Positions 1-31,984 of a stretch of DNA of 31,984 nt are shown in pieces. Numbering within the stretch: the stretch's first letter is position 1; the number at the start of each line of letters is the position of its first letter. The notes under the pieces are model-generated. The model was not told the origin of the DNA and did not search any database. It saw nothing but the letters and a program-made list of their open reading frames with translations. The position numbers and the translations under genes are program-made. The DNA is from a virus (taxonomy: Duplodnaviria > Heunggongvirae > Uroviricota > Caudoviricetes), in IMG/VR virus record IMGVR_UViG_2534682327_000012, one strand, 5' to 3'.

Positions 1-1011
1 TTATAACGTCACTCCGCCTTTTAGAGGATTCAGCGCGACGGCATTTTGCAGGTAGTCAGGCGCAAGGTGCGCATAGGCCATCGTCTGCTGAATGCTCGCA
101 TGTCCCAGAATCTGTTGCAGTGCGATTATATTGCCCCCATTCATCATGAAATGGCTTGCGAATGTATGACGCAGGATGTGGGTTGCCTGATTGGGTGGTA
201 TATCTGGCTTCACTCTGCGTAAAATCCCGCAAAACTTCTCATAATCAACTTTGAATAATTTAGCGCTGGCCTCCTCTTTAACTTTTTTCTCCAGTTCCTC
301 AGAAATCGGCACGGTTCGCTTTTTACCGTTTTTGGTTTTCAGGAAGGTAACCCTGCAATTTGTAATCTGTGCTGGTTTTAGCGTGGCAACTTCCGTCCAT
401 CTTCCTCCAGTGCTCAGACATAAAAGTGCGACAAGTAAGTCATCACCATCCAAAACATTTAACAGTTTTTCGATTTCTGCTTTTTCCAGGAACGTCATTT
501 CAGGGTTGGCCTCCGCCAGTGGCGGCAGTCCGTGAATTGGGTGTTGCCCGGAAAATTCATCCAATTGAATTAATTTTGTGAACATGCCGGATAATCGGTA
601 CATGTCACGGTTTATCGTTGCGGCACTGATACCATCACGTAGTCGCATGGAACGATAATCCATCAAAGCTCTTTTGCTCATCCGGCTCACTGGTATATCA
701 CCTATGCCGCTGATGGTTTTGAGCAGATGATTAAACTCTTTTGTTCCATGCTCGTGGTTTTGCCCGTGATATTTCCACCAGATGTCCAGCAACTCACTCA
801 AAGTTCTGCGATCTGCTCGCTGACCTGCCCATTCTTTCTGGCTGGCGTAGGCGATTGTGTATCGCTCAAATGCTACAGCCTCAGCTTTTCTTTCAAATTT
901 CCTGCGGATGCGTTTTCCGTCGCGACCGCGAGGTCTAATGTCCACTTCATAGCGTCCATCATCGAGCTTCTTAATTGACATAAGAAAGCCCTCTGACGCT
1001 GTATTCACCAT
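1..1011 (-). CDS. int: Tyrosine integrase (P2 Int family), 336 aa
   Basis: Translation has N-terminal IKKLDDGRYEVDIRP and C-terminal catalytic region HILRHTFASHF ... TMAYAHLAPDYL (His/Arg box and catalytic Tyr) typical of P2-type integrases; diverged from P2 Int itself. Confidence 0.93.
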   Translation of the reverse strand: MVNTASEGFLMSIKKLDDGRYEVDIRPRGRDGKRIRRKFERKAEAVAFERYTIAYASQKEWAGQRADRRTLSELLDIWWKYHGQNHEHGTKEFNHLLKTISGIGDIPVSRMSKRALMDYRSMRLRDGISAATINRDMYRLSGMFTKLIQLDEFSGQHPIHGLPPLAEANPEMTFLEKAEIEKLLNVLDGDDLLVALLCLSTGGRWTEVATLKPAQITNCRVTFLKTKNGKKRTVPISEELEKKVKEEASAKLFKVDYEKFCGILRRVKPDIPPNQATHILRHTFASHFMMNGGNIIALQQILGHASIQQTMAYAHLAPDYLQNAVALNPLKGGVTL

Positions 1012-1050: not shown

Positions 1051-1344
1051 TTAACCAGTCTGTTTTTCGGAGTGGTCTGATTCTGTTGGTTTTTGCCCAA
1101 TGTGTGCGAGAGCCGGCGCGATCTGACCAGCTTGTGGTGACGTATCACCAGTCATTAACCAGAGCGTATATTTTTTAAATAAAGGCGTATTTGTGACTCG
1201 CATAACGATGCTGAGACCAGGGTCTTTATGCCCACTTTCGTAATTTTTGACTGTTCCTAGAGCTATCCCGCTAATTTCGCTGAATTTCGCCTGTGTTAAG
1301 CCTTCTGCTTTCCTAATCGCTTTCAGTTTTTCGAATGTCTGCAT
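1051..1344 (-). CDS. C: Immunity repressor C (small HTH repressor, P2 C family), 97 aa
   Basis: Position between int and cox, divergent from cox; HTH-like segment LTQAKFSEISGIALGTVKNYESG; C-terminal GQIAPALAH resembles P2 C as I recall it. Confidence 0.85.
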   Translation of the reverse strand: MQTFEKLKAIRKAEGLTQAKFSEISGIALGTVKNYESGHKDPGLSIVMRVTNTPLFKKYTLWLMTGDTSPQAGQIAPALAHIGQKPTESDHSEKQTG

Positions 1345-1373
1345 TTGACAGTAACCTATTGGTGACTTATATT
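1345..1373 (+). promoter_or_regulatory. Candidate early promoter Pe: TTGACA (1345..1350), 17-bp spacer, TATATT (1368..1373), reading towards cox
   Basis: Near-consensus sigma70 -35 and -10 hexamers with ideal spacing, seen directly in the C/cox intergenic switch region. Confidence 0.5.
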
Positions 1374-1400
1374 CCCGTCAAAAGGTTGTGTATTGGTGAC
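1357..1400. promoter_or_regulatory. Candidate C-repressor operator: 10-bp direct repeat TATTGGTGAC at 1357..1366 and 1391..1400 (34 bp centre to centre) flanking the -10 hexamer
   Basis: Exact direct repeat seen in sequence; P2-type repressors bind direct repeats flanking the -10 of Pe (established); the 34-bp spacing recalls the W-phi-type switch rather than the P2 22-bp type (recollection, unverified). Confidence 0.45.
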
Positions 1401-1496
1401 CTTTTGAGTGTGTTAGCCAGTCCCTAGAAAGGACAGGGGCGACCTAGAAGGGACTGGATCTAATAAGGGTAACACGAAAGCAAAAAGGGCTAATCA

Positions 1497-1769
1497 ATGG
1501 AAGTCAATGACTATGTGATTCAGTACCCGATTGATGCGGTACATACGGTTAAGTTTGCAGAGTTACTTGGTAAGCCAGAAACGGCTGTAGTCAAGATGGT
1601 AAAAGAGAATAAATTGCCAGTTATTGAGCTTCGTGATCCAAGTAAGCCGAACGCTCGTGTCGGTGAGAAGTGGGTTTTCATTCCAGAGTTTAATCGCGCT
1701 GTACGAGAGGCGTTTTATAACCGACCAGTTGAACAGCGTGATGCATGGCTTTTGTGGATGGGGTTGTGA
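1497..1769 (+). CDS. cox: Cox (excisionase / early-promoter repressor), 90 aa
   Basis: First gene of the rightward early operon; C-terminus RDAWLLWMGL resembles the P2 Cox C-terminus; size and position fit. Confidence 0.8.
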   Translation: MEVNDYVIQYPIDAVHTVKFAELLGKPETAVVKMVKENKLPVIELRDPSKPNARVGEKWVFIPEFNRAVREAFYNRPVEQRDAWLLWMGL

Positions 1770-20202: not shown

Positions 20203-22497
20203 ATGAGCACAAAATTCAGAACCGTTATCACCACTGCCGGTGCAGCAAAGCTGGCAGCGGCAACCGCACCGGGAGGGCGGAAGGTCAACATTACCACGAT
20301 GGCCGTCGGGGATGGCGGTGGTAAATTGCCTGTCCCGGATGCCGGACAGACCGGGCTTATCCACGAAGTCTGGCGACATACGCTGAACAAAATCAGCCAG
20401 GACAAACGAAACAGTAATTATATTATCGCAGAGCTGGTTATTCCGCCGGAGGTGGGCGGTTTCTGGATGCGTGAGCTTGGCCTGTACGATGATGCGGGAA
20501 CGTTAATTGCCGTGGCGAACATGGCCGAAAGTTATAAGCCAGCTCTTGCCGAAGGCTCAGGGCGTTCGCAGACCTGTCGCATGGTCATCATCGTCAGCAG
20601 TGTGGCCTCGGTGGAGCTGACCATTGACACCACAACGGTGATGGCGACACAGGATTACGTTGATGACAAAATTGCAGAGCACGAACAGTCACGACGTCAC
20701 CCGGACGCCTCGCTGACCGCAAAAGGTTTTACTCAGTTAAGCAGTGCGACCAACAGCACGTCTGAAACACTGGCCGCAACGCCGAAAGCGGTAAAGGCCG
20801 CCTATGACCTTGCTAACGGGAAATATACCGCACAGGACGCTACCACTGCGCGAAAAGGTCTTGTCCAGCTCAGTAGTGCCACCAACAGCACGTCTGAAAC
20901 GCTTGCGGCAACGCCAAAGGCGGTTAAGACAGCGTATGACCTTGCTAACGGGAAATACACTGCACAGGACGCCACTACAGCGCGAAAAGGTCTTGTCCAG
21001 CTCAGTAGCGCCACCAACAGCGATTCTGAAACGCTTGCGGCAACACCAAAGGCGGTTAAGACAGCGTATGACCTTGCTAACGGGAAATACACTGCACAGG
21101 ATGCCACCACAGCGCGAAAAGGTCTTGTCCAGCTAAGTAGTGCCATCAACAGCGATTCTGAAACGCTGGCCGCAACGCCAAAAGCAGTGAAGTCTGCCTA
21201 TGACAATGCTGAAAAACGTCTTCAGAAAGATCAGAACGGTGCGGATATTCCGGGAAAGGATACCTTCACGAAAAATATCGGTGCCTGTCGTGCTTATAGC
21301 GGCGCTTTGAGCACTGAAGCCGGAAACTGGACAACCGCTCAGTTTATTGAATGGCTGGATTCCCGTGGTGCATTTAATCATCCGTACTGGATGTGCAAAG
21401 GCTCCTGGTCATATGCAAATAACAAAATCATTACGGATACCGGATGTGGTGATATCCACCTGGCTGGTTGTGTCGTCGAGGTCATGGGAACTAAATCTGC
21501 AATCACTATCCGAGTGACCACGCCAACAACATCAAGCGGTGGCGGTACAACCAGCGCGCAATTCACTTACATAAATCATGGGGACGGCTACTCCCCCGGC
21601 TGGCGTCGTGACTGGAATCGTCAGGGCGACTCAATGACCGGAACGATTAATCAGGATGGCGGAAGCCAGAATGCCTATATGTCTACGGCCTTATGTTCAG
21701 GCACCAGAGGCGGCAAAAAATATCTCAGAAAGTTTCGTGGTGGAGAAGGAGATACTATCTGGCATGAAACAGTTCAGGGCGGGGTAATTCGCTGGGCGAC
21801 AGGAAACAATGACGCTCAGGAAGAATTATCACTCAGCTCCGCTTATGGTCTCCGTTCAAGAGGTGAAATTACATCACTCAGTGCTAATGGTCTGCGCATT
21901 GCTTATGGCAATTATGGATTCTTTATCAGGAATGATGGCGGCAGCACATATTTAATGCTGACGGCCTCTGGCGATAAATTTGGGACATGGAACGGCTTAA
22001 GACCGCTGACTATCAATAACGCCAATGGCGGAGTGTCAATGGGGCATGGCCTGAGTGTTACAGGTGATATTGTCTCAAGTACCAAAGTACGTGCCGGTAG
22101 CGGGAAAAAGTTCACGGTCAGCAGCAGCAATACATCCACGAAGGAAGCCGCATTCAATTTGTGGGGAAACTCAAGTCGTCCTGTGGTGGCTGAATTAGGT
22201 GATGATGCAGGCTGGCATTTTTACAGTCAGAGAAATACAGATAACAGCATCACTTTTGCTGTTAACGGGCAGGTATCACCATCTAACTATAGTAATTTTG
22301 ATTCCCGTTATGTACGCGATATCCGGCTTGGGACTCGAGTTGTCCAGACCATGAAGAAAGGGGGGATGTATGAGAAAGCAGGGCACGTAATTACCGGGCT
22401 TGGTATTATCGGTGAAGTCGATGGTGATGACCCCGCAGTATTCAGACCAATACAAAAATACATCAATGGCACATGGTATAACGTCGCACAGGTGTAA
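20203..22497 (+). CDS. H: Tail fibre protein H, 764 aa, with an internal tandem repeat array
   Basis: Conserved N-terminal part MSTKFRTVITTAGAAKLAAATAPGG; Ser/Thr/Gly-rich C-terminal receptor-binding part; followed by tail fibre assembly gene G. Confidence 0.9.
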   Translation: MSTKFRTVITTAGAAKLAAATAPGGRKVNITTMAVGDGGGKLPVPDAGQTGLIHEVWRHTLNKISQDKRNSNYIIAELVIPPEVGGFWMRELGLYDDAGTLIAVANMAESYKPALAEGSGRSQTCRMVIIVSSVASVELTIDTTTVMATQDYVDDKIAEHEQSRRHPDASLTAKGFTQLSSATNSTSETLAATPKAVKAAYDLANGKYTAQDATTARKGLVQLSSATNSTSETLAATPKAVKTAYDLANGKYTAQDATTARKGLVQLSSATNSDSETLAATPKAVKTAYDLANGKYTAQDATTARKGLVQLSSAINSDSETLAATPKAVKSAYDNAEKRLQKDQNGADIPGKDTFTKNIGACRAYSGALSTEAGNWTTAQFIEWLDSRGAFNHPYWMCKGSWSYANNKIITDTGCGDIHLAGCVVEVMGTKSAITIRVTTPTTSSGGGTTSAQFTYINHGDGYSPGWRRDWNRQGDSMTGTINQDGGSQNAYMSTALCSGTRGGKKYLRKFRGGEGDTIWHETVQGGVIRWATGNNDAQEELSLSSAYGLRSRGEITSLSANGLRIAYGNYGFFIRNDGGSTYLMLTASGDKFGTWNGLRPLTINNANGGVSMGHGLSVTGDIVSSTKVRAGSGKKFTVSSSNTSTKEAAFNLWGNSSRPVVAELGDDAGWHFYSQRNTDNSITFAVNGQVSPSNYSNFDSRYVRDIRLGTRVVQTMKKGGMYEKAGHVITGLGIIGEVDGDDPAVFRPIQKYINGTWYNVAQV
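20722..21204 (+). repeat. In-frame 132-bp (44-aa) tandem repeat, about 3.7 copies, within H (unit KGLVQLSSATNSTSETLAATPKAVKTAYDLANGKYTAQDATTAR)
   Basis: Copies begin at 20722, 20854, 20986 and 21118; copies 2 and 3 are nearly identical at the DNA level. Confidence 0.9.
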
Positions 22498-31081: not shown

Positions 31082-31984
31082 ATGAATCAATCTTATGGAC
31101 GGCTGGTCAGTCGGGCGGCGATTGCTGCGACGGCGATGGCTTCGTTGCTATTGCTGATTAAAATTTTTGCATGGTGGTATACCGGGTCGGTGAGTATTCT
31201 CGCCGCGCTGGTGGATTCGCTGGTGGATATCGGCGCGTCGTTGACGAATTTACTGGTGGTGCGATATTCCCTGCAACCTGCCGACGATAATCACTCGTTT
31301 GGTCACGGTAAAGCAGAGTCCCTCGCGGCGCTGGCGCAAAGTATGTTTATCTCCGGTTCGGCACTATTCCTGTTTTTGACGGGTATTCAACATCTGATAT
31401 CTCCAACACCGATGACAGATCCAGGCGTCGGGGTTATCGTGACAATTGTGGCGCTAATTTGTACGATTATCCTTGTCTCGTTTCAGCGTTGGGTGGTGCG
31501 CCGGACGCAAAGCCAGGCGGTGCGGGCTGATATGCTACATTACCAGTCTGATGTTATGATGAACGGCGCAATTCTGCTGGCGCTGGGGTTGTCCTGGTAC
31601 GGCTGGCATCGCGCCGATGCTCTGTTTGCATTGGGAATCGGCATCTATATTTTATATAGCGCGTTACGCATGGGATATGAGGCGGTACAGTCATTACTGG
31701 ATCGCGCATTGCCTGATGAGGAACGGCAAGAAATTATTGATATCGTGACTTCCTGGCCGGGTGTTAGCGGCGCTCACGATCTTCGCACGCGGCAGTCAGG
31801 GCCGACCCGCTTTATTCAGATTCATTTGGAAATGGAAGACTCTCTGCCTTTGGTTCAGGCACATATGGTGGCGGATCAGGTAGAGCAGGCTATTTTACGG
31901 CGTTTTCCGGGATCGGATGTAATTATCCATCAGGACCCCTGTTCCGTCGTACCCAGGGAGGGTAAACGGTCTATGCTTTCATAA
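31082..31984 (+). CDS. fieF: Host cation-diffusion-facilitator Fe/Zn efflux transporter FieF (YiiP), 300 aa
   Basis: Translation [54 protein letters not shown]... recognised as enterobacterial FieF; the track ORF starts at an upstream TTG, the ATG at 31082 gives the known N-terminus; stop at the window end. Confidence 0.93.

Follow-up and report, generated by a model that had tools for sequence, protein, structure and literature searches.

The DNA between the genes C and cox in the window (the whole stretch of 31,984 nucleotides that we analysed) is almost certainly the lysis/lysogeny, or immunity, switch of a Wphi-type P2-like prophage and, judged by its sequence, belongs to the published immunity class III. 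Indeed, positions 1040-1780 match phage Wphi (AJ245959, AY135739) and a dozen Wphi-like phages at every nucleotide (100% identity), and the six nucleotides by which positions 1-1806 differ from AJ245959 all lie to the left of 1004, in int or just beyond it. Positions 1345-1400 are the exact "Wphi wt Pe promoter/operator" oligonucleotide used for plasmid pEE938 (PMC1904263), and the promoter features of GenBank record AJ245959 fall on 1343-1379 (plus strand, Pe) and 1461-1497 (minus strand, Pc). Mutational and binding data, including repression in vivo and binding by C in electrophoretic mobility shift assays (EMSA), have been published for the identical sequence (PMC1904263, PMC1904268). The sequence, geometry and conservation described below were computed here, and the steps of repression are taken from that literature.

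The one detail that is possibly new is that two inverted repeats between Pe and cox appear to be conserved, covarying hairpins. No description of them was found in the literature searched, the reach of which ended short of the primary Wphi papers of 1999 and 2009 (the latter on Cox). The transcriptional switch of Wphi (Peduovirus Wphi) was described by Liu and Haggard-Ljungquist (1999) and studied in detail in work of 2007 to 2016, and its re-identification here is ordinary.

Prophage context and genes of the switch

Of 5426 complete E. coli genomes, 260 (~5%) carry the 200-bp switch, each in a single copy and with at least 99% identity. The window equals IMGVR_UViG_2531839485_000011 save for one base, and ~85% of it aligns to Wphi, at 94.7-97.6% identity. 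The ~15% for which Wphi has no counterpart consists of three cargo loci, the C-terminus of the tail fibre and the host flank. Since the final 0.9 kb belong to a cation-efflux gene of the host, the window represents an integrated prophage with host flank, and the start of that gene at 31082, together with the end of ogr homology at ~31003, places attR between the two; an attB coordinate for Wphi has been published (PMC3448106). A close direct repeat, CGCTGGTGGAT at 31206-31228, was considered as an arm site for Int and dismissed, as it lies inside the same host gene. The three cargo ORFs (Table 1) lie where P2-like phages classically carry variable cargo, and none of them has a Pfam or PADLOC match. 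Positions 21211-22104 likely encode a different host-range module. A preliminary description of this DNA, made from the letters alone, had suggested a mosaic phage; this holds for the cargo and tail-fibre segments, and not for the immunity region.

C is a homologue of P2 C, matching the P2 C structures 2xcj and 2l49 (E = 4.5e-25), and is read divergently from cox. Cox, in turn, is a homologue of P2 Cox (Pfam Phage_Cox, 83.5 bits; match to the P2 Cox structure 4lhf), and its gene is followed by orf78 and then B. Counting the stop codon, 325 of the 327 positions in the translated int frame are the same as in Wphi int. C and Int had both been described as diverged, which proved wrong for either protein, C being identical to that of Wphi.

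Table 1. Features of the switch and of the surrounding prophage, in window coordinates
Feature	Position	Strand	Basis or remark
int, tyrosine integrase (Wphi Int)	1-981	-	Pfam Int_N and Phage_integrase; annotated int in AJ245959
C, immunity repressor; first in the lysogenic transcript from Pc	1051-1344	-	100% identical to Wphi C; Pfam HTH_3
Pe, early promoter	1345-1373	+	-35 TTGACA 1345-1350, 17-nt spacer, -10 TATATT 1368-1373; start ~1379-1380
O1, C half-site TATTGGTGAC, within the Pe spacer	1357-1366	+	Exact copy; inside the pEE938 oligonucleotide
O2, C half-site TATTGGTGAC, ~Pe +12 to +21	1391-1400	+	Exact copy; PMC1904263, PMC1904268
Inverted repeat A: TCAAAAGGT (1378-1386), 12 nt, ACCTTTTGA (1399-1407)	1378-1407		Arms 9/9 complementary
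Inverted repeat B: CCAGTCCCT (1417-1425), 23 nt, AGGGACTGG (1449-1457)	1417-1457		Arms 9 bp
Imperfect direct repeat, presumed Wphi Cox operator	1423-1457	+	CCTAGAAAGGAC(AGG) / CCTAGAAGGGAC(TGG), 20 nt start to start
Pc, weak promoter for C and int, facing Pe	1461-1497	-	AJ245959 promoter feature; start ~1461
cox, first in the early operon; excision directionality factor that also represses Pc	1497-1769	+	100% identical to Wphi cox; Pfam Phage_Cox
Cargo ORF, 244 aa	6531-7265	-	Segment without Wphi counterpart
Cargo ORF, 261 aa	16908-17693	-	Segment without Wphi counterpart
Cargo ORF, 175 aa	23417-23944	+	Segment without Wphi counterpart
Host gene, 300-aa cation-diffusion facilitator	31082-31984	+	Pfam Cation_efflux and ZT_dimer

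The Pe promoter and the C operator

Pe agrees with the sigma70 consensus at 11 of 12 positions and is the only match this good with a 17-nt spacer in the window, where shuffles give 0.10 expected. The preliminary description had pointed out this near-consensus promoter directed towards cox, and it coincides with the mapped Pe of Wphi. Its start is derived from the published 82-nt overlap of the Wphi transcripts (PMC1904263). Two exact copies of TATTGGTGAC, 34 nt apart from start to start, flank the -10 hexamer. Their reading as a P2-family C-repressor operator was borne out by the identity of the region to Wphi, the published half-sites of which they match: these are 10 bp long, lie 34 bp apart and likewise flank the Pe -10 (PMC1904268). 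The likeness in spacing to Wphi rather than to P2, where the half-sites are 22 bp apart, had also been recognized correctly.

The evidence for the Wphi operator comes from EMSA, from chloramphenicol acetyltransferase (CAT) assays with mutated or hybrid half-sites and from DNA bending (PMC1904263). Wphi C is a dimer, which bends the operator by ~60 degrees; in vitro one half-site is enough for it to bind, and in vivo it requires both (PMC1904263). The distance of 60 nt between O2 and the Pc start in Wphi (PMC1904263) fits the coordinates in the window. According to the published work on this sequence, C dimers in the lysogen sit on O1 and O2, on either side of the -10 and the start site, bend the DNA by the same angle and turn Pe off; bound there, C occludes both the -10 and the start region of the promoter. 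Inside the C gene, 169 nt upstream of O1, the operator 10-mer recurs once more with one mismatch (TATTTGTGAC, 1188-1197, plus strand); isolated near-matches to the operator are considered unlikely to matter (PMC1904268).

The half-sites are conserved wherever the repressor is. O1 is invariant in all 21 IMG/VR loci whose C is 87-100% identical to that of the window, and O2 is identical in 18 of them, with one change in two loci and two changes in the 87% relative; positions and spacing of the half-sites are constant across these 21 loci. A lack of conservation among phages that share this repressor, which would have spoken against the operator, was thus not observed.

That the repeats are chance matches without function is hardly credible. 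By count alone they would not stand out, as the window contains four close 10-mer direct repeats, about the chance level, and CCTAGAARGGAC, allowing up to two mismatches, is not enriched. We judge the operator repeat to be non-random because of where it lies, on both sides of the -10 of the sole near-consensus promoter and within the 152-nt intergenic region; against chance also stand the published mutational and binding data on the identical sequence, the conservation of the half-sites in all same-repressor loci and the conservation, with covariation, of the inverted repeats described below. We give as little credence to the idea that the switch confers P2-type (class I) immunity, or a new specificity that arose by mosaicism. 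The gene order and the late genes are indeed P2-like, and the first 25 kb show ~97% identity to P2-like phages over 84-91% of their length. The P2 operator, GTTTAGAT repeated at 22 bp, is however absent, C is only ~45% identical to P2 C, and both C and the intergenic region are identical to those of Wphi, which speaks against P2-type and new immunity alike. The non-P2 specificity proposed in the preliminary description is therefore supported by the sequence, which points to that of Wphi.

Comparison with other switches of the P2 family

Within the switch we found no difference from Wphi: the sequence from C through the intergenic region to cox, the positions of Pe and Pc, the O1 and O2 10-mers at 34 bp and the geometry of the 82-nt overlap are all the same, and it is elsewhere that the prophage differs. 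With P2 (class I) the window shares a small helix-turn-helix repressor C and Cox, face-to-face Pc and Pe promoters, direct-repeat half-sites flanking the Pe -10, and a Pe -35 that abuts the C start codon. P2 differs in its half-sites, which are 8 bp long (P2 locus L007), in its transcripts, which overlap by only ~35 nt (PMC1904263), and in its Cox protein, which uses 9-bp cox-boxes, TTAAA(G/C)NC(A/C), instead of a 12-nt repeat (PMC5009727); moreover, P2 C is unable to bind a single half-site, whereas Wphi C can (PMC1904263). P2 Hy dis has C and Cox proteins of the same family and convergent promoters, but its 8-bp half-sites, 26 bp apart, flank the -35 rather than the -10 (PMC1904268).

Phage 186 likewise has convergent lytic and lysogenic promoters with transcriptional interference, and the product of its first lytic gene doubles as the excisionase. 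It differs in having its own CI repressor, a cII establishment gene and distant flanking operators (PMC3448106, PMC1904268). In the window the repressor is a P2 C homologue, and cox is followed by no gene of the cII type, orf78 and B standing there as they do in Wphi and P2; the switch is not of the 186 type.

Relatives with a 45-75% identical C keep the layout and have other repeat sequences. L-413C, for example, carries CTATATAGG twice at 34 bp and phiT5282H carries ATCTCTACCAT twice at 33 bp; repeats that differ from class to class are the known pattern of heteroimmune classes (PMC3448106). In five distant relatives (L024, L055, L019, L078 and L085) each half-site is itself a palindrome of 16-18 bp (GGTTCC...GGAACC type), repeated twice. 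Such palindromic half-sites fit one symmetric C dimer per half-site and bear on the puzzle of how P2 C reads a direct repeat (PMC2995052).

Pc, the presumed Cox site and convergent transcription

For Pc, we assign from the sequence a -35 hexamer TTGATT (1497-1492) and a -10 hexamer TGTTAC (1474-1469). The direct repeat CCTAGAA at 1423-1429 and 1443-1449, the coordinates of which had been given correctly, grows to 12 nt with one mismatch (CCTAGAAAGGAC and CCTAGAAGGGAC) and to 15 nt at 87% identity. Wphi Cox recognizes a 12-nucleotide direct repeat in the Pe-Pc region, and not the P2 cox-boxes (PMC5009727). No other imperfect direct repeat of 12 nt occurs between Pe and Pc, and the copies at 1423-1434 and 1443-1454 are therefore presumably the target of Wphi Cox.

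The Pe and Pc transcripts of Wphi overlap by 82 nt (PMC1904263), which is consistent with a Pe start at ~1380 and a Pc start at 1461, both placed by matching the sequence to the promoters mapped in AJ245959. The strong Pe would drive rightward transcription of cox and the replication genes, and the weak Pc leftward transcription of C and int. In the lytic phase, Cox would bind the imperfect repeat (1423-1454), which lies a short way downstream of the Pc start, and turn Pc off, and strong transcription from Pe may additionally interfere with Pc. Such interference of strong Pe transcription with the weak Pc is reportedly stated in the abstract of the 1999 Wphi paper.

A GATC (Dam) site at 1457-1460 lies directly 3' of the stem of inverted repeat B, at about +2 to +5 of Pc, and 41 of 51 relatives also have GATC after the stem. 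This could reflect plain conservation of the promoter and start region, or a methylation-sensitive element.

Conserved inverted repeats around O2 and the presumed Cox site

O2 lies within the loop and 3' arm of inverted repeat A, and inverted repeat B encloses the Cox-site repeats. The preliminary description had listed these downstream symmetric elements without interpretation. Its coordinates for A were accurate, and the arms are complementary at all nine positions; its second pair, CAGTCCC/GGGACTG, is real, but the left arm lies at 1418-1424 instead of 1419-1425, and the true arms are 9 bp long.

We compared loci of C homologues, 80 taken from one genome per species and 80 from IMG/VR, oriented like the window and anchored on the Pe -10. 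In most of the enterobacterial relatives the same arrangement recurs: the C start codon is followed by TTGACA, a 17-nt spacer and a TATATT-like -10, then by hairpin A (with O2), hairpin B (with the Cox repeats), GGATC and cox. In 51 diverged representatives both hairpin regions fold below dinucleotide shuffles, on either strand (mean z ~ -2.5, with 55-67% of the sequences under -2).

Pairing was scored by direct counts and in length-matched, motif-anchored ungapped alignments, in which the three innermost pairs of each stem served as anchors and the sequences compared are related to each other. Hairpin A takes the form GGT-N12-ACC in 59 of 72 distinct sequences, the loop being 12 nt in 56 of the 59; this GGT/ACC core, the three inner pairs of the stem, overlaps the operator unit itself. 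Across 52 distinct relatives, 84.1% of the cells of hairpin A pair when read as plus strand and 86.7% when read as minus strand, against at most 61% with a slid partner, and 8 of 11 pairs have changed on both sides (at one pair, for instance, U-A occurs 17 times and C-G 15 times). Hairpin B is paired to 70% among 51 relatives, against at most 42% when slid. In its class of 18 sequences of 47 nt these values are 80% and at most 52%; the covariation score of this class, like that of hairpin A, was reached by none of 500 shuffles, controls that only partly remove phylogenetic relatedness. Dozens of relatives with other immunity specificities thus keep both inverted repeats by compensatory change.

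RNAalifold on a plain MAFFT alignment (51 sequences, 105 nt) returned only four core pairs of hairpin A, because indels shift the stem registers. For hairpin B, a mixed-length MAFFT alignment put gaps in the 5' arm and was left out, so that only the 47-nt class was scored for covariation against shuffles. Rfam gave no match in 1000-1900 at E <= 1. A reading of the hairpins as terminators or attenuators was rejected, since the terminator scan was empty at both and neither is followed by a U-run.

Two relatives show an exchange of parts. In L108 (C 87% identical, same O1) hairpin B and the Cox site form a different module, and in L114 (C 70% identical, other operators) the hairpin B and Cox-site module of the window is almost unchanged. 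This exchange implies that the switch is modular, with recombination between the two hairpins.

Possible roles of the hairpins

Both inverted repeats fall in the segment where the two transcripts overlap. It is possible, though we put it forward tentatively, that they are no incidental symmetry but RNA hairpins, kept by compensatory change across many immunity classes, that structure the 5' leader of the Pc mRNA and the ~82-nt antisense overlap of the convergent transcripts. As part of the leader of the repressor message, they could stabilize this weakly made mRNA or modulate the interference between the Pe and Pc transcripts, the role that we consider likeliest, if with low confidence. In the fold predicted for the Pc leader RNA (positions 1461 to 1342, read leftward) just these two hairpins form, with the minimum free energy (MFE) structure equal to the centroid (-33.4 kcal/mol, z = -2.9). 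The fold predicted for the Pe leader is ambiguous, its MFE structure having an ensemble frequency of 0.004; in it, CCUUUU of the 3' arm of A (1399-1405) pairs with AAAAGG (1483-1489) beside the cox start codon, in place of hairpin A.

As to the strand on which the hairpins might function, the clean fold of the Pc leader, the extension of stem A to 2-5 bp upstream of the expected Pe start in many relatives, and the excess of plus-strand A-C mismatches (G-U pairs on the minus strand) over plus-strand G-U pairs, 69 to 41 in A and 80 to 35 in B, give a mild lean to the minus (Pc) strand. The folding energies lean the same way, the minus strand being the more stable in 33 of 51 sequences for A and 31 of 51 for B, and are, like the counts, not decisive. 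These same observations make it unlikely that the hairpins act in the early transcript, with A as a 5'-terminal stem-loop that stabilizes cox mRNA or as a competitor of the masking of the cox ribosome-binding site. A Pe start at ~1380 would indeed place a 7-bp stem at the very 5' end of this RNA, the pairing of the 3' arm of A with AAAAGG near the cox Shine-Dalgarno would offer a means of masking, and several relatives have plus-strand G-U pairs. However, where stem A reaches upstream of the Pe start those pairs would lie outside the Pe RNA, and plus-strand A-C mismatches outnumber the G-U pairs; the ambiguous Pe leader fold also compares poorly with the two clean hairpins of the Pc leader.

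Alternatively, the inverted repeats might act as DNA, as protein-binding palindromes that give the symmetric C dimer a second, less specific set of contacts at O2 or that are bound by a host factor. Not only the pairing but the sequence of AAAGGT-N12-ACCTTT itself is conserved, with a spacer of exactly 12 nt in 56 of the 59 relatives and a fixed position relative to the Pe -10. A crystal structure indicates that the symmetric P2 C dimer must contact sequence outside the direct repeat (PMC2995052), and flanking phage DNA alters the number of C-DNA complexes in EMSA (PMC1904263). On the other hand, the outer pairs covary among relatives (T-A to C-G, C-G to G-C or T-A), which a fixed host protein would not tolerate, and O1 has no comparable inverted-repeat flanks. 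Truncation of the constructs at 1401, which takes away the 3' arm of repeat A, leaves repression by C in vivo normal, so C can repress without this repeat; with these constructs, or with 6- or 10-nt deletions in the region of the 5' arm, repression was 91-99%, and the authors judged secondary C sites very unlikely (PMC1904263). We therefore regard a role as DNA palindromes as improbable.

One published observation may bear on the proposed RNA hairpins. When the phage flanks were swapped for vector DNA, expression of a Pe-cat reporter rose ~100-fold, which was left unexplained (PMC1904263). With those flanks, Pc, the whole of hairpin B and the 3' arm of hairpin A were removed.

Discussion

Wphi has one of the three P2-family switches with mapped operators. 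The practical value of the present analysis is a correct annotation of the region as Wphi (class III) immunity, with Pe, Pc, O1, O2 and the presumed Cox site placed to the base. If the proposed role of the hairpins is true, they could account for the ~100-fold anomaly of the Pe reporter (PMC1904263), which would make that anomaly testable, and they would add to the P2-type switch a post-transcriptional layer or one that tunes interference. The textbook picture of two repressors and convergent promoters would then lack an RNA-level component.
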